Source: a virus. From it: a DNA stretch of 23,637 nucleotides. The notes under the pieces are model-generated. The model was given only the letters and a program-made list of their open reading frames with translations. It was not told where the DNA came from and made no database searches. The position numbers and the translations under genes are program-made. The first letter of the stretch is position 1. Each line of letters opens with the position of its first letter. The stretch lies in the UHGV virus genome UHGV-1381150; one strand, 5' to 3'. Below, in pieces: positions 11,681 through 18,920 of the stretch.

Positions 11681-11736
11681 AGCAATTTAGATAATCGTGC
11701 AGACTACGCCCCTCATATCACATGGAAGGTACTACA

Positions 11737-12147
11737 ATGGCTCAGGTTGCCATTTTTAAACAAATATTCGATAAAGTGCGAAATAATTTAAACTATCACT
11801 GGTTTTATTCTGAACTAAAACGTCACAATGTCTCACATTACATTTACTATTTAGCCACAGAGAATATTCATCTTGTTCTTGAAAACGATAATACGGTTTT
11901 AATAAAAGGACAGGGTAAGGTTGTAAATGTAAGATTTTCAAAAAATAAATGCCTTATAGAAGCCACATTAAAAGGATTCAAATCAGGAGAGTTATCATTT
12001 TACGAATACAGGAAAAATCTTGCTACAGCAGGGGTTTTCAGATGGATTACAAATATCCACGAAAACAAAAGGTATTACTATACCTTTGATAATTCATTAC
12101 TCTTTACTGAGAACATTCAGAACACTACACAAATATTTCCGCACTAA
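11737..12147 (+). CDS. Hypothetical moron protein (136 aa from [11 protein letters not shown]), possibly DUF1398/YbcV-like
   Basis: GGAAGG Shine-Dalgarno 8 nt upstream of the ATG at 11737; AT-rich codon usage; family call is from memory only. Confidence 0.55.
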
Positions 12148-13551: not shown

Positions 13552-13887
13552 TTACTCCTTCGAGCTACCAAACTTGTTACCGATTACTCTCATTGCAGCC
13601 CCACGAATAGCATCGACACCGATCAGCCCCACCCCACCACCAATGGCAACAGAAAGCGATTTAGGCCATCCGACATACTCAAGCGCGGATGCAAAGGTCA
13701 ACGTCAGAGCGCCACATAGCAAAATCTCGAGCGTTTTTCGCTTCCAGCCACCACCACCGCCAAAATAGGCGATGCGCAAACCAGCCATAACAATCGACAT
13801 AATCACTGCGCCCAGCGGCGTATCTCCACGCCACCAGCTCTGAAACAACTCCAGCCAGTCCGGCCAAGTATTTGGGTTATGAGGCAT
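13552..13887 (-). CDS. Holin, class I-like with three predicted transmembrane segments, not lambda S type (start at internal ATG, MPHNPNTWPDW...)
   Basis: Immediately upstream of R; hydrophobic segments LGAVIMSIVMAGLRIAYF, TLEILLCGALTLTFASALEYV, LSVAIGGGVGLIGV; charged C-terminus; start is ambiguous (ORF track begins at 13983). Confidence 0.75.
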   Translation of the reverse strand: MPHNPNTWPDWLELFQSWWRGDTPLGAVIMSIVMAGLRIAYFGGGGGWKRKTLEILLCGALTLTFASALEYVGWPKSLSVAIGGGVGLIGVDAIRGAAMRVIGNKFGSSKE

Positions 13888-13963
13888 TTCGTCATCTCTC
13901 ACCTCGCGATATTTGCGGGTGCTGTGTTGGAAATAAAAAGGCCACGCAACGTGGCCACCAGAA

Positions 13964-15016
13964 TTATTTCCCCACCAGTTCACTTACCTCTTTCACCGTC
14001 TGATTAAATCGCTCTGACTCAAGTTCAACACCTAACGCCCGACGCCCCAGCGCCATTGCCGCTTTTATTGTGGAACCGGATCCCATAAAGAAATCAGCAA
14101 CCAGATCGCCTTGTCGACTACTGGCACTGATTATTTGCCGGAGCATATCCGCAGGCTTCTCACACGGATGTTTACCCGGGTAGAACTGAACGGGTTTATG
14201 CGTCCAGACGTCGGTATAAGGCACGGAAACTGATACGGAGAAATAGCGCCGGAGAGTTTTAAACTCATCCAGCAATTCAGAATATTTGCGATTCAGTGAA
14301 TCATAAGATGCCACCAGCTGGTGGTGTGGTTGTTCCAGTTGTTGTTCCTGAAATTTCTCTGCCGCTATACGGGAAAACAGTGCCTGCAACTTCCGGTAGT
14401 CAGCCTCATTCGGCAACTGCCACTGACTGGCACCAAACCAGTGGGAAACCATATTTTTCTTACCTGTGGCTTCGGCAATTTGTTTTGCCGTTATACCCAG
14501 TTCGGCACGAGCATCCCTGAAATACGATATCAGCGGTGCCATTATGTGCTGTTTGAGTTCCCTTTCTTTTGCCGCATAGCCGTCACTTTTGCCGCGATAT
14601 GGCCCCTGGTAATGTTCAGCAAACAGAACGCGCTCTGTGGCAGGAAAATATGCGCGCAGACTTTCTTTATTACACCCATTCCAACGTCCGGACGGCTTCG
14701 CCCAGATGATATGGTTAAGCACGTTGAAACGTTCACGCATCATGATCTCAATATCAGATGCCAGGCGATGCCCACAGAACAGGTAAAGGCTTCCGGCAGG
14801 TTTCAACACCCGCCAGAACTGGGCCAGACAGTGGTCCAGCCACTTAAGGTAATCTTCGTCCCCTTTCCACTGATTGTCCCAACCGTTGGGTTTCACCTTG
14901 AAGTAAGGCGGATCGGTAACAATCAGGTCAATGGAATCATCAGGCAGGGACTGAATAAAATGCAGGCAATCAGCGTTGATTAAATCAACACTGTTTATTT
15001 TTACAGTATTTTTCAT
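13964..15016 (-). CDS. DNA methyltransferase, beta-class amino-MTase (N6-adenine or N4-cytosine)
   Basis: 350-aa ORF with catalytic motif IV DPPY (IVTDPPYF) near the N-terminus and an AdoMet-binding FxGxG-like motif (DFFMGSGST) near the C-terminus, i.e. the IV-before-I order of beta-class enzymes. Confidence 0.85.
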   Translation of the reverse strand: MKNTVKINSVDLINADCLHFIQSLPDDSIDLIVTDPPYFKVKPNGWDNQWKGDEDYLKWLDHCLAQFWRVLKPAGSLYLFCGHRLASDIEIMMRERFNVLNHIIWAKPSGRWNGCNKESLRAYFPATERVLFAEHYQGPYRGKSDGYAAKERELKQHIMAPLISYFRDARAELGITAKQIAEATGKKNMVSHWFGASQWQLPNEADYRKLQALFSRIAAEKFQEQQLEQPHHQLVASYDSLNRKYSELLDEFKTLRRYFSVSVSVPYTDVWTHKPVQFYPGKHPCEKPADMLRQIISASSRQGDLVADFFMGSGSTIKAAMALGRRALGVELESERFNQTVKEVSELVGK

Positions 15017-15165
15017 GGATCAGTAAGCGTAACTCTGGTAGGCTCACTCTGCTTTTGCGCTAAAGCAGTGGGCCGTGGTTCGCTTGTGACCAGTAAGCAT
15101 GAGCGAATGGCTGGCAGGTGCTACCAACACCCACCAGCCGCCCATTTTCACAAATTAAAAGTCCT

Positions 15166-15360
15166 TCATTGCTGAAGGCGTCTGTAACAGCCGAACTGGT
15201 AATCTGCCAGCCCCGCCATAACCAACTGGGTCAGTATTAACTGACAGCGTTCGCGTGAAAGATATGTGTTTTGTGCAATCTCCCCGACTGTTGCCGGTTC
15301 GATGCTTAATTCATTAAAAACAACTTTCGCCGTTTCTGTCATATCTTGCTGTTTTAGCAT
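15166..15360 (-). CDS. Small winged-helix-like protein (64 aa from MLKQQDMTETAKV...)
   Basis: AGGA Shine-Dalgarno upstream of the ATG at 15360; VGEIAQNTYLSRERCQLILTQLVMAGLA resembles a wHTH recognition region; weak support. Confidence 0.4.
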   Translation of the reverse strand: MLKQQDMTETAKVVFNELSIEPATVGEIAQNTYLSRERCQLILTQLVMAGLADYQFGCYRRLQQ

Positions 15361-15482
15361 GTCTTTTTTCCTTCTGGTTAACATGACATACCAATAACTC
15401 TTGTCTAAAAAGCCAGCAAGATAAAAAGTCAGTATTCACGACCACCAGCGTGTTTACCGTACTGCACCAGGTTTACAGGTAC

Positions 15483-15506
15483 AAAAAAACCCGCTCGACG
15501 GCGGGT
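15483..15506 (-). terminator. Rho-independent terminator for the minus strand (hairpin CCCGCT-CGAC-GGCGGG followed by a 7-T run on the minus strand)
   Basis: Plus strand reads AAAAAAACCCGCTCGACGGCGGGT; GC-rich 5-6 bp stem with a U-tract on the minus-strand side; only TTT on the plus-strand side. Confidence 0.55.
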
Positions 15507-15553
15507 TTAAGTTGTGTGGCGAAGTAACCACTCTTAACACAATACAATACTTT

Positions 15554-15582
15554 TTGCGTACGCGTTATAGTTTTCTTACAAT
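15554..15582 (+). promoter_or_regulatory. Candidate sigma70 promoter of the DUF262/HEPN operon (-35 TTGCGT, 17-bp spacer, -10 TACAAT)
   Basis: Hexamers read directly; followed by AAAGGA RBS (15595-15600) and ATG at 15609; prediction only. Confidence 0.4.
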
Positions 15583-15608
15583 CAACTTTCAATTAAAGGA
15601 ACGAAAAC

Positions 15609-16769
15609 ATGACTACACTCAAAGAACTCAAAGAAGAGCTTGCTCAGATACAAGATGAACACGCTAAGAACAGAAAAAAGGCTGAAATTGCAGCTTTAAC
15701 CGCTTCCGCTGACAATGAAATCAGACTCGCTCAGAGAAACATTGGATACAATGTACGTGAGTGGACCGTTGAAGTCATTATTCAAAAGTATGGTGATAAT
15801 ATTGAAAATGACAAAAACGAGCTTTTTATTCCAGATTATCAACGTGATTACAAGTGGGATACAAAAACAGCCTCTCGCTTTATAGAAAGTATTCTATTAG
15901 ACTTTCCAATACCTTACCTTTACATTGCTGATGTATTTAATGAAGACCCTGAATTAGATGGTAGGGTAGAAATCATTGATGGTTCACAACGGATACGCTC
16001 TATTTATTATTTTTGGAACGATCAATTTGAGTTAAAGGATTTGAAAGAGCTTAAAAGTTTAGAAGGTTTCAAATTTTCAGATCTTTTAGCTAGCCGCCAA
16101 AGAAGATTTTTAAGAGCTTCACTAAGATTTATTGAGTTGAAAGGTGATGTTGAGGAACAACATAGAAGAGATTTATTTGAAAGGATCAACTCAGGTGTTA
16201 AAAGATTAGAAGCGATGGAAGTGAGGCATGGCTCAGATGCTGCTACCTCAATGTTCTATAAAGATGTTGTGACCCCATGCTCAACAAACTCACTTTTTTC
16301 CCAACTAGCTCCATTATCAGACCGGAAACGGTCGAATGGCGATCATCGTGAGTTAGTTTTGAGATTTTTTGCATATTTAAATGATTTAGAAAACTATAAG
16401 GGATTTGTCCGTCCCTTTATTGATAATTATTTAAATGAACAAGCAGCAGCTGTGACTACTCAACAAGATGTTGATAATTTTAAACATGATTTTGAAATGA
16501 TGCTTGCTTTTGTTGCTACCCATTTCCCTATTGGCTTTAAAAAGACCGCAACAAGTAAAACCACCCCACGAGCCAGATACGAAGCCATTGCCGTGGGAAC
16601 TGCACTTGCATTAAAAACTAACCCACAACTCCAGAGTCCAGCCGTACCTGTAGGTGAATGGCTATTTGAAGAGGAATTTGAAACACTTGTTACTGCTGAT
16701 AGTGCAAACAATACCAGCCAGCTAAAAAACAGAATCTTTTACGTTAAAAATAAGTTGTTAGGGATTTAA
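15609..16769 (+). CDS. DUF262/ParB-like (GmrS-type) NTPase-domain protein with an uncharacterised C-terminal half
   Basis: 386 aa; motifs IPDYQRDYKW (aa 74-83) and IIDGSQR (aa 122-128) match the hallmark motifs of DUF262 domains; N-terminal coiled-coil-like segment; AT-rich gene. Confidence 0.8.
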   Translation: MTTLKELKEELAQIQDEHAKNRKKAEIAALTASADNEIRLAQRNIGYNVREWTVEVIIQKYGDNIENDKNELFIPDYQRDYKWDTKTASRFIESILLDFPIPYLYIADVFNEDPELDGRVEIIDGSQRIRSIYYFWNDQFELKDLKELKSLEGFKFSDLLASRQRRFLRASLRFIELKGDVEEQHRRDLFERINSGVKRLEAMEVRHGSDAATSMFYKDVVTPCSTNSLFSQLAPLSDRKRSNGDHRELVLRFFAYLNDLENYKGFVRPFIDNYLNEQAAAVTTQQDVDNFKHDFEMMLAFVATHFPIGFKKTATSKTTPRARYEAIAVGTALALKTNPQLQSPAVPVGEWLFEEEFETLVTADSANNTSQLKNRIFYVKNKLLGI

Positions 16770-16771
16770 AA

Positions 16772-17461
16772 ATGAGTCTAATTGATTTACGAGATGAATA
16801 TGAAGAAAGAGCAAGAGACATTATGGAACTGCTTTCTCTTGCATCATCTATAGAGATTCATACTCAGCAGTTAGATCCGCAAGCGCATCAAGATGAAATA
16901 GAATCTAATATCCTAAGGGTAAATATTTTAAAATCATCCGTTCATATGATGCTATATAATCAAGTTGAAAATACTGCCAGAGGTTGCATCGAGTCAATTT
17001 ATGATCATTTACAAGATAATGAGGTGAATTACGCATCACTCAGGGAGAAGCTTCAAGTAAATATATTACATAGAATTGTTTCAGATAATGAAACAGGGCA
17101 ATCCCTTTATAAAAAGATAGGCACTGACATTTCCAAAAGAATAATTTCAGCCTCATTGAATATTCGTAAAGAATTCAATGGTAATGTTTGCAAGCCTGTA
17201 TTACACAAAATAACGCAGGCTTACGGAATAACTATCGCAAACTCACCTGAATGTAGAAATGGTATTGACTTAGACTTGCTTAAGGATATCAGAAACGAAC
17301 TCGCGCATGGAAGTACTAGCTTCTCTAAAAAGGGGCAAATTGACCCCTTAGAAGAAGTTAAGTCTAGAGCAGAGAGAGTTGATCTATATCTTCGTTTATT
17401 AATAAACTCAACTGAAGATTATATTATCTCTAACGGATATTTATCCCCTCAACATGCCTAA
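16772..17461 (+). CDS. HEPN-like protein (Rx4H motif RNELAH), putative effector partner of the DUF262 protein
   Basis: 229 aa; starts 2 nt after the stop of the upstream gene; predicted all-helical; conserved-looking R-x4-H motif at aa 174-179 (nt 17291-17308). Confidence 0.6.
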   Translation: MSLIDLRDEYEERARDIMELLSLASSIEIHTQQLDPQAHQDEIESNILRVNILKSSVHMMLYNQVENTARGCIESIYDHLQDNEVNYASLREKLQVNILHRIVSDNETGQSLYKKIGTDISKRIISASLNIRKEFNGNVCKPVLHKITQAYGITIANSPECRNGIDLDLLKDIRNELAHGSTSFSKKGQIDPLEEVKSRAERVDLYLRLLINSTEDYIISNGYLSPQHA

Positions 17462-18470
17462 CAAACGTTCTCCCTATTACTTGGCCAATTATAGGGGGAA
17501 CAGCATTACCAATCATCGTTCCTAACTTTTGGAATGAAAAAGGCGTATTTTTTCCAATAAATTTATAATCCATAGGAAAAGATTGTAAAATAGCAGCTTC
17601 ACGCAAAGTTATTGCTCTATTTTGCTCAGGATGTCCGAATCGCCCATTACCATATCCATAACATTGGGTAGTTATTGTAGGACTAGTATCGTCCCAAACC
17701 ATCCGTCCATAAACACTTTTATAGGTAGCACCTGAATGCTTTTTATGGCAATCCGCTCTAATTTCTTCAGGCCAATCATCCCACGTACCACCTGGTAAAG
17801 AGTGCAAGATTCGTTTAAGGTTAATATCCCTTAATTTAGGCGAACGATGCAATGGATCACTTTCGAGTTTCTCCCCTGCACCTATTTTTGGCAACTGACC
17901 AATAGCATCCTTTACTGTAACTTTACGGCTTACTTTTTTTTGATCAAGGCTGATTGGCCCCAATATGGACCCAATTAGAATTAATCTACGTCTATTTTGA
18001 GGCAAGCCATACTCGGAACATTTTACAACGTCGTACCACAGATGATACCCAAGAGTCTTTAATACACTAACAAACTCTTCAAAAACCTTATGATTTCTAA
18101 GTTGAGGAACATTTTCCATAGTCACAAGCTCTGGCATGACATCACTTACAATCCTCTGAAACTCAGATAAAAGACGCCACTTTGTATCATCTTTTCTGCT
18201 ATTTGGATTACGATACTTGGAAAACGGTTGGCAAGGGGCACAGCCTGCAAGTAATCTAATATTTCCTTCCTTGAACATAGCAGACACATCGCTGGATTGC
18301 AGTTCAGTAACTGACTGGTTAATGAACTTCGTTAAGGGATTATTGCTCTCAATAGCGAAACGGCAGGACTCATCAATATCAATGCCATGAGAAACTTCAA
18401 TCCCGGCTTTTTTTAGCCCAAAAGTTAAGCCCCCTGCGCCACAAAAAATGTCTACTGCTTGAATGTTCAC
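17430..18470 (-). CDS. DNA (cytosine-5)-methyltransferase, Dcm-like (GTG start with GGAG Shine-Dalgarno)
   Basis: 346 aa with canonical m5C-MTase motifs in order: I FCGAGG, IV GCAPCQPFS, VI ENV, VIII QNRRR, a variable target-recognition region, and C-terminal GNAV. Confidence 0.9.
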   Translation of the reverse strand: MNIQAVDIFCGAGGLTFGLKKAGIEVSHGIDIDESCRFAIESNNPLTKFINQSVTELQSSDVSAMFKEGNIRLLAGCAPCQPFSKYRNPNSRKDDTKWRLLSEFQRIVSDVMPELVTMENVPQLRNHKVFEEFVSVLKTLGYHLWYDVVKCSEYGLPQNRRRLILIGSILGPISLDQKKVSRKVTVKDAIGQLPKIGAGEKLESDPLHRSPKLRDINLKRILHSLPGGTWDDWPEEIRADCHKKHSGATYKSVYGRMVWDDTSPTITTQCYGYGNGRFGHPEQNRAITLREAAILQSFPMDYKFIGKNTPFSFQKLGTMIGNAVPPIIGQVIGRTFVRHVEGINIR

Positions 18471-18489
18471 AAGATTCTCCGTTACTTTA

Positions 18490-18535
18490 CCCTGGTATTA
18501 TATACACATAAAAGTTGGGAAAGTAGAATGATTTT
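18490..18535 (-). promoter_or_regulatory. Candidate late promoter pR' with presumed Q-utilisation site (-10 TATAAT at 18502..18497 on the minus strand)
   Basis: The 79-bp Q-to-MTase intergenic region contains a perfect TATAAT on the minus strand about 30 nt upstream of the MTase start; the -35 is weak (TACTTT), as is common for activator-dependent promoters. Confidence 0.35.
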
Positions 18536-18549
18536 ACATAGCACTTAAC

Positions 18550-18903
18550 TCATTGTATTAAATAAAAAAATGACAAGCATCCATCAATAAACCCCATAGC
18601 TGTTTGCATATCTTTTCGAACTGTTCCGTCTGAACATTTCCGCTTCTTTGCAATTGTACGGAGCGAAATGCCAACAACAAAGTGAGCAATTATCAGCTCA
18701 TACTCTGCCGGCTTGTATTTACGCAACCTAGCGACACAACCGTCTATTATGATGCCCTCATCATCATCGCACTGAATCCGGGACTTTCTGCCATGAGGTA
18801 AAAGCCGCTTGAAGCCAGCAGCTACCGGTTGCCAGTCCACACCACTGTTTTCTGCAGCAGCCCATGCCCCCCAGCGGTCCAAAACTTCATACATATCACG
18901 CAT
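18550..18903 (-). CDS. Q: Late-gene antiterminator Q (QuuD/Q21-like family)
   Basis: MRDMYEVLDRWGAWAAAENSG...QCDDDEGIIIDGCVARL resembles E. coli DLP12 QuuD as recalled; located directly upstream of the late operon. Confidence 0.8.
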   Translation of the reverse strand: MRDMYEVLDRWGAWAAAENSGVDWQPVAAGFKRLLPHGRKSRIQCDDDEGIIIDGCVARLRKYKPAEYELIIAHFVVGISLRTIAKKRKCSDGTVRKDMQTAMGFIDGCLSFFYLIQ

Positions 18904-18920
18904 CAACTTTCTCCACAAAA

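Follow-up and report, generated by a model that had tools for sequence, protein, structure and literature searches.

The stretch of DNA analysed here, referred to as the window, is 23,637 nucleotides of UHGV virus genome UHGV-1381150 and is a lambda-like prophage. Its minus strand carries, in this order, replication-region genes, a RusA-type gene, KilA-N, DUF968/HNH, the antiterminator gene Q, a methyltransferase (MTase) region, and the holin, endolysin, Rz, Nu1, gpA, portal, S49 protease and capsid E genes. The MTase region contains the open reading frame (ORF) that is our subject:

13964–15016, minus strand: N6-adenine methyltransferase ORF of the M.EcoGI/M.EcoGII family, 350 amino acids (aa), ATG start, PF01555

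We conclude that this gene very probably encodes a late-expressed orphan adenine MTase of the M.EcoGI/M.EcoGII family, carried by a lambda-like Escherichia coli prophage.

The methyltransferase and its family

The 350-aa protein has DPPY (motif IV) at residues 35–38 and FMGSG, within DFFMGSGST, at residues 310–314. Motif IV precedes motif I, which is the beta-class order. The Pfam family PF01555 (N6_N4_Mtase) covers residues 29–341 with E=9.6e-42 and 143.9 bits against a cut-off of 26.7, far past chance level, and the best NCBIfam matches are beta-class models, every one below its own cut-off. A Dam-type (alpha-class, GATC) enzyme finds no support in the beta motif order, nor is any Dam family among the Pfam and NCBIfam matches. 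PADLOC returned only generic 'MTase_II' models for the MTase, which are not evidence of a defence system. Two antisense ORFs inside the gene (14321–14983 and 14296–14520) had no Pfam match and were set aside as shadow ORFs.

The AlphaFold2 model of the protein consists of two Rossmann-type halves with a helical insert between them. When this model was compared with the PDB using Foldseek, the top matches were beta-class N6-adenine MTases: M.BceJIV and CcrM (E=1e-16), MboIIA (4.5e-15) and RsrI (3e-14). A phmmer search of the PDB agrees with Foldseek, its best match being M.BceJIV (E=3e-23), over the catalytic halves only; no solved structure of M.EcoGII or of a close relative was found there. 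The helices of the recognition insert, modelled with moderate confidence, span residues 146–173, 177–184, 190–194 and 204–223, in agreement with the four-helix helix-turn-helix recognition insert described for the M.EcoGII clade (PMC11551740).

The closest characterised enzyme is M.EcoGII, which methylates adenine at N6 in any context (PMC5778455). The two proteins are colinear over their full length, with 283 of 349 positions identical (approximately 81%) and two single-residue gaps. Identity is 89% in the N-terminal catalytic half and 77% in both the recognition region (residues 160–237) and the C-terminal half, and no indel alters the recognition region relative to M.EcoGII. These figures bear directly on the possibility that the gene encodes an N4-cytosine MTase or an inactive remnant. 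PF01555 spans N6-adenine and N4-cytosine enzymes, and N4-cytosine enzymes are among the weaker structural matches; however, motif IV is DPPY, about 81% of the sequence is shared with a proven N6-adenine enzyme, the frame is intact and every catalytic motif is conserved, making this alternative highly improbable.

Comparison with reconstructed ancestors of the family places the protein more closely. Among the natural sequences that we retrieved, the window protein is the nearest to Anc291 (89% identity); its identity to SUPREM/Anc284, a deeper ancestor, is 70%, and Anc291 is nearer to the window protein than to M.EcoGII. Every reconstructed ancestor acted on both DNA and RNA, and specificity tests, made on Anc291 and SUPREM, revealed no site preference on RNA (PMC11551740). 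Among enzymes whose recognition site is proven, the nearest is M.PflMI, which shares only 27% identity with M.EcoGII (PMC11551740). On the basis of the identities to M.EcoGII, Anc291 and SUPREM, with M.PflMI at only 27%, we place the window protein deep in the non-specific clade. Its sequence puts it in the M.EcoGI/M.EcoGII family, well within a clade bracketed by non-specific enzymes, and this bracketing makes it quite probable that the window enzyme is itself non-specific.

Alternatively, the enzyme might be a sequence-specific orphan MTase that makes N6-methyladenine (m6A) at a motif of its own, its branch having gained or kept a specificity unlike M.EcoGII. Such a reading can point to the 23% of recognition region 160–237 that differs from M.EcoGII, and to the 'site-specific DNA-methyltransferase' label that NCBI gives to the homologues, though this name is generic. 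It has to contend with the 89% and 70% identities to two ancestors lacking site preference on RNA, with the distance to the nearest site-specific enzyme and with a recognition region free of indels, and we regard it as unlikely.

The protein has every testable defining feature of beta-class amino-MTases and of the M.EcoGI/M.EcoGII clade. M.EcoGII is prophage-borne, silent during normal growth and in the lysogen, and deleterious if expressed constitutively (PMC5778455, PMC12707154); its relatives form 'a very large family' in prophages of E. coli and phages of enterobacteria (PMC5778455). The window gene also lies within a prophage, with Q, S, R, Rz, Nu1, gpA, portal and capsid E genes distributed on its two sides. 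Its context (terminators on both sides and a leader over the start region, described below) is compatible with silence in the lysogen.

Annotated products 98–99% identical to the protein are found in vB_EcoM-720R4, mEp460 (gp53), cdtI (orf56), Ayreon and SfV (orf48), and products 82–85% identical in Stx2c-converting phages, phiP27 and Citrobacter phage phiNP (tblastn, phage genomes). A megablast search of 5426 complete E. coli genomes found the gene in 1256 of them (roughly a quarter), mostly at 95–99% identity. Relatives with 61–82% protein identity are spread over the Enterobacterales, Morganella, Proteus, Xenorhabdus and Photorhabdus among them. Some prophages contain truncated or interrupted copies, and some O157:H7 genomes hold the first 362 nucleotides (nt) only.

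Two groups of homologues stand apart. MTases 79–83% identical to the window protein occur on contigs labelled Vagococcus, Geobacteraceae, Chryseobacterium and Collinsella (L016, L029, L031 and L050); contamination by enterobacterial DNA or mis-binning most likely accounts for these, rather than true hosts of those names. In three proteins of 407–439 aa (P0006, P0043 and P0111), a 99%-identical MTase part is fused to Rz-like or other domains; these look like gene-calling or assembly artefacts.

A preliminary description, made from the sequence alone, had called the product a beta-class amino-MTase of 350 aa with DPPY near the N terminus and DFFMGSGST near the C terminus, and the motif positions and PF01555 match bear this out. 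It had allowed for either m6A or N4-methylcytosine (m4C) as the product; the approximate 81% identity to M.EcoGII resolves this choice, predicting m6A, and m4C is dropped. The comparison of the target-recognition region with a characterised MTase, which it had proposed, gives the 77% identity to M.EcoGII over residues 160–237. Decay of the catalytic motifs across homologues, which it had named as evidence to the contrary, is not observed: all 114 full-length homologues retain DPPY, and 112 of the 114 retain FxGxG. What it missed is that the protein belongs to a known family, that of M.EcoGII, the characterised members of which lack sequence specificity, and that the gene is already annotated in sequenced phages. 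The MTase itself is already known, one more copy of a characterised family.

The late-operon cassette and its structured leader

The MTase gene stands in a cassette that runs, on the minus strand, from a terminator through a small winged-helix ORF, a non-coding stretch of ~150 nt that includes the leader, and the MTase to a second terminator and the holin. Together with Q and a conserved block ahead of the first terminator, its elements are:

18550–18918, minus strand: antiterminator Q (PF06530, E=5.4e-46; phrog_79)
15509–15561, minus strand: conserved block of ~53 nt that separates the variable cargo from the terminator, from an alignment of relatives
15487–15508, minus strand: intrinsic-terminator-like hairpin and U-tract in the position of tR', from a scan (AAACCCGCCGTCGAGCGGGTTT then TTTTGTACCT)
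15166–15360, minus strand: small winged-helix ORF of 64 aa if begun at the ATG at 15360 (72 aa in its longest form, starting at 15384)
15017–15152, minus strand: conserved structured non-coding leader, ~136 nt, ending at the MTase ATG, from conservation and covariation
13940–13956, minus strand: intrinsic-terminator-like hairpin and U-tract between the MTase stop and the holin start, from a scan (GGCCACGTTGCGTGGCC then TTTTTATTTC)
13552–13887, minus strand: lambda-family holin (PF05106, E=5.9e-27; TIGR01594, E=1.2e-36; phrog_126)

The order Q–terminator–small ORF–MTase–terminator–S is annotated in SfV and Ayreon, and an alignment shows the cassette to be conserved from the first terminator on in SfV, cdtI, Ayreon, mEp460 and 1720a-02. 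The upstream terminator is kept in these same five phages, and the SfV and Ayreon entries record it as rho-independent; in these two entries the downstream terminator is also annotated at the equivalent place. A crude scan found a similar hairpin and T-run 3' of the MTase in 33 of 70 relatives. In other genera, the next gene 3' of the MTase usually encodes a predicted small membrane protein, several of them holin-like and of various families, as assessed by eye.

The most likely holin start is the ATG at 13887 and not the GTG at 13983, because the PF05106/TIGR01594 match begins at residue 33 of the long ORF. With this start, the gap between the MTase and the holin is 76 nt and contains the terminator-like hairpin. 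The window Q is 58% identical to the Q of the Stx2 phage 1720a-02, in which it lies directly ahead of the same cassette, and is likely the trans-acting switch for read-through of both terminators by the late transcript. The MTase would then be the first cargo of a Q-dependent late transcript, and we infer that it is expressed only late. Its enclosure between terminators fits the reported silence of M.EcoGII in lysogens.

The block of ~53 nt is kept in the window and in 1720a-02, cdtI, CFS3313 and THO-003, which share the short Q type, whatever the cargo upstream of it. In 1720a-02, it starts ~50 nt past the Q stop codon. The late (pR') transcript may begin with this block, or the block may be a Q-utilisation region. 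A candidate late promoter picked out by eye, TTGAAA–17 nt–TATAAC at 15591–15563, is not conserved in relatives, only the block at 15561–15509 being so. We also considered whether the short terminated transcript could be StxS, a 258-nt RNA from the Stx1 and Stx2a phages of Sakai (PMC7547250), and dropped the idea, no Rfam family having matched here.

The small ORF matches phrog_331, a family label without a function (E=6e-35), and has weak Pfam matches to DprA_WH (0.0053) and TrmB (0.0083); NCBI names its homologues 'TrmB family transcriptional regulator'. It is annotated as orf47 in SfV, orf55 in cdtI and gp52 in mEp460, and lies upstream of the MTase in 65 of 86 loci (tblastn). A control (C) protein of the kind that would carry Xre or HTH_3 is not indicated, neither family being matched by the upstream small ORF in Pfam. 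A regulatory role for the winged-helix protein is possible.

Between this ORF and the MTase, the leader is more conserved than its surroundings. Across 38 loci of other genera, mean nucleotide identity to the window is 87.5% in the leader, 74.8% in the MTase coding sequence and 64% in the small-ORF region, and the leader exceeds the MTase coding sequence in 37 of the 38. In cdtI, mEp460 and Ayreon, a divergent small-ORF allele (55% identity) sits beside a leader without a mismatch in the 136 nt that adjoin the ATG. The window leader folds better than its shuffles (z=−2.9). A MAFFT alignment of 39 sequences yielded a consensus structure of 40 pairs, with 93.8% of cells paired against 28–42% with slid partners, and 10 pairs with compensatory change against 3.8±1.4 in shuffles (0 of 500). 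The corresponding values for a covariance-model alignment, which leans toward the model it was made by, are 95.4% against 28–40%, and 13 compensatory pairs against 4.7±1.6 (0 of 500). Searched with the covariance model, 54 sources (53 loci and the window) gave one strong match apiece (E<=8e-18), ending in every case at the MTase ATG. Three extra matches were weak: one at L012 2019–2098, and truncated ones at the MTase start of L056 and L059.

One helix of the leader (helix 3), with four covarying pairs, joins GGTCACAAGCG to CGCTTACTGATC, the latter being the 12 nt immediately 5' of the MTase start codon. No Shine-Dalgarno sequence is visible in these 12 nt. At gathering score, no Rfam family matched anywhere in the window, and within 13900–15650 there were only two sub-threshold matches at chance level (fstAT, E=0.32; Trp_leader, E=0.87). 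A 33-aa ORF in the leader (MGGWWVLVAP...) was rejected as a small protein: most relatives have only 7 codons before a stop.

Translational restraint of a toxic MTase, exerted through pairing with the start region, is a reasonable proposal for what the leader would do. We suggest more tentatively, and with some doubt, that the leader and the winged-helix protein could together form an undescribed cis-regulatory device that keeps MTase translation low or delayed in the late phase, with the winged-helix protein or the enzyme itself as a possible ligand. It is this leader with its winged-helix partner, in association with an MTase that is known, that may be a new element.

The position of the MTase, first in the late operon and with a conserved leader, could also be taken to mean that its main role is regulatory or RNA-directed, whether in late-gene timing, as a packaging mark like that of P1 Dmt, or through m6A in RNA. 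M.EcoGII does act on RNA and DNA:RNA hybrids too (PMC5778455), and some phage orphan MTases serve packaging or regulation (PMC12707154). However, the activity of M.EcoGII on DNA is ~90-fold above that on RNA (Table S3 of PMC11551740), the reports describe no packaging or regulatory dependence, and truncated copies persist in prophages, though possibly in defective elements. We consider a main role of this kind quite unlikely.

The neighbouring island and the orphan status of the methyltransferase

Between Q and the conserved block, the window carries a second MTase gene, for a 5-methylcytosine (m5C) enzyme, together with two genes on the other strand:

17430–18470, minus strand: m5C methyltransferase (PF00145, E=2.7e-54)
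16772–17461, plus strand: MAE_28990-type HEPN protein, from a profile match
15609–16769, plus strand: DUF262/GmrSD_N protein (PF03235; PADLOC NsnA E=6e-45 and PD-T4-2_A E=5e-27)

The m5C and HEPN genes are convergent, and their 3' ends overlap by 32 bp (17430–17461). These genes make up a 2.9-kb island (15609–18470), and all 107 E. coli genomes with any part of it hold the DUF262, HEPN and m5C genes together. The GC content of the island is 33–40%, against 48–52% in the cassette and backbone. The island matches the HEPN–ParB–methylase association described for MAE_28990 HEPN proteins (PMC3710099). It occurs as two alleles, at 100% and ~87% identity. THO-003 is the sole strain inspected for the second allele, which is present in 73 genomes; in the annotation of THO-003, the M.EcoGII-type gene (L088 2441–2899) is a truncated pseudogene fused to a DUF6645 fragment.

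Because the three island genes co-occur in all 107 genomes and have a low GC content, and because the N6-adenine MTase gene is found in 1256, we assign the m5C enzyme to the defence module. The N6-adenine MTase is an orphan, an independent gene of the backbone, whereas the m5C MTase belongs with the DUF262/HEPN defence-like island. No classical restriction endonuclease gene lies beside the N6-adenine MTase, the neighbours of which are the winged-helix ORF and the holin, and the locus is not a type II restriction–modification (R-M) system.

The DUF262 and HEPN genes lie on the other strand 600 bp upstream of the MTase, and this proximity might suggest that the MTase is the modification half of an R-M-like unit with them. 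Their distributions speak against such a unit: the MTase is found in 1256 genomes but DUF262/HEPN in 107, always with the m5C MTase, and SfV, 1720a-02, cdtI and CFS3313 have the N6-adenine cassette without DUF262/HEPN. As the island also differs in GC content, we hold a joint unit to be very unlikely, and the MTase to be an orphan that is independent of the island.

The interval between Q and the 53-nt block is a site at which cargo is swapped. It corresponds to 15562–18549 in the window, 7492–9123 in L087 and 457–2122 in L004. CFS3313, an otherwise similar prophage in which the MTase gene is 99.8% identical in nucleotides, has different cargo there. CFS3313 and cdtI have another opposite-strand gene pair at this site (hypothetical proteins of 313 and 149 aa in CFS3313), and SfV and 1720a-02 are free of cargo between Q and the cassette. 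Elsewhere in the window, the plus strand carries a DUF1398 gene (PF07166, E=3e-43) at 11722–12147 between Rz and Nu1, a typical moron position at which CFS3313 also has a gene, ynfO.

The preliminary description had placed the MTase directly upstream of the holin with no restriction endonuclease adjoining. Both statements are right, with the nuance that, if the holin starts at 13887, a 76-nt gap with a hairpin intervenes. It had also recognised two MTases of different chemistry in the region from Q to the lysis genes, in accordance with the PF00145 and PF01555 enzymes described here. Its term 'second orphan' holds for the N6-adenine enzyme but not for the m5C enzyme, which is tied to the DUF262/HEPN island in 107 of 107 genomes. 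Of the two arrangements it had offered, stacked anti-restriction or one MTase paired with the defence module and the other orphan, co-presence in the 107 genomes and GC content support the second.

Proposed function and comparison with known systems

We propose the following sequence of events. In the lysogen, the MTase gene would be silent behind the intrinsic terminator 3' of Q. On induction, Q-modified RNA polymerase would pass this terminator and transcribe the winged-helix ORF, the leader and the MTase gene, and would then cross the second terminator into the holin, endolysin, spanin and head genes. Translation of the MTase would probably be restrained by pairing between the leader and the start region and by the lack of a Shine-Dalgarno sequence. 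The enzyme is probably a homodimer, by analogy with gel filtration of M.EcoGII and with AlphaFold2 homodimer models. It would bind DNA through its helical helix-turn-helix insert without reading the sequence and, with S-adenosylmethionine in the FxGxG pocket and the DPPY catalytic loop, would methylate adenines at N6 in essentially any context. Progeny genomes packaged in this heavily m6A-modified form would, through one round of infection, be protected in the next host against many adenine-sensitive restriction systems. The most likely function would be a late, near-indiscriminate m6A marking of progeny DNA that would blunt restriction in the next host.

Several points weigh against this view. 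The predicted local distance difference test score of the AlphaFold2 model averages 70.7, indicating moderate model confidence only. The M.EcoGII reference sequence comes from Table S1 of PMC11551740, a machine-converted PDF with a few errors, and the identities to it are approximate; the best phage match to the machine-read sequence is 93%, which reflects conversion errors, allelic differences or both. About 19% of positions, and 23% of the recognition region, differ from this closest characterised enzyme, and specificity may have narrowed. A scan for sigma-70 promoters did not locate the late promoter, giving 13 matches against 12.5 in shuffled sequence. The truncated copies in prophages imply that the gene is dispensable for prophage maintenance. 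Finally, the anti-restriction role is inferred, here as in the literature on the family (PMC5778455, PMC12707154).

The M.EcoGII family is sold as a reagent and is widely used for chromatin footprinting. With an enzyme that is probably non-specific, methylomes of induced lysogens would be expected to show diffuse adenine methylation and no motif. The leader and its winged-helix partner could explain how the phage tolerates a toxic enzyme, and might find use where enzymes of the M.EcoGII type are to be expressed under control. Defence-like cargo is swapped in the interval that separates Q from the putative late-transcript start.

In its catalytic fold and motifs, the window protein resembles the solved beta-class N6-adenine MTases CcrM, M.BceJIV, M.RsrI and M.MboIIA. 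These are ~20% identical to it, are sequence-specific and have a different helical insert or none, and several of them belong to R-M systems or to cell-cycle control. Functional analogues are Mom and the non-specific adenine MTases Hia5/Hin1523 of Haemophilus prophages, which are late and broadly modify adenines in progeny DNA. Mom of phage Mu is silent in the lysogen and toxic if artificially expressed, as is M.EcoGII (PMC12707154); the analogy is functional only, the chemistry of Mom being unrelated to that of the window MTase.

Among Stx2 phages (1720a-02 and Stx2a/Stx2c-converting phages), an MTase of the same family lies between Q and stx2, with 83–85% identity where compared. In phage 1720a-02, a homologous short Q is immediately followed by the same small ORF and leader, and stx2A instead of a holin comes after the MTase. 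SfV, cdtI, mEp460 and Ayreon share with the window the order terminator, small ORF, MTase, terminator and lysis genes. The leader is identical over 136–149 nt in this group, with one mismatch in Ayreon. They differ from the window in having other Q types or holins, and no cargo or different cargo before the cassette.

The nearest characterised relatives are M.EcoGII (EGT69837.1) and M.EcoGI of E. coli O104:H4 C227-11, which are non-specific N6-adenine MTases (Murray et al. 2018, PMC5778455). Like M.EcoGII, the window protein has the beta-class order, a length of 349–350 aa with colinearity throughout, the same helical recognition insert and a prophage location. Unlike M.EcoGII, from which it differs at ~19% of residues, the window allele falls in the SfV/cdtI/mEp460 sub-branch, nearer to Anc291.

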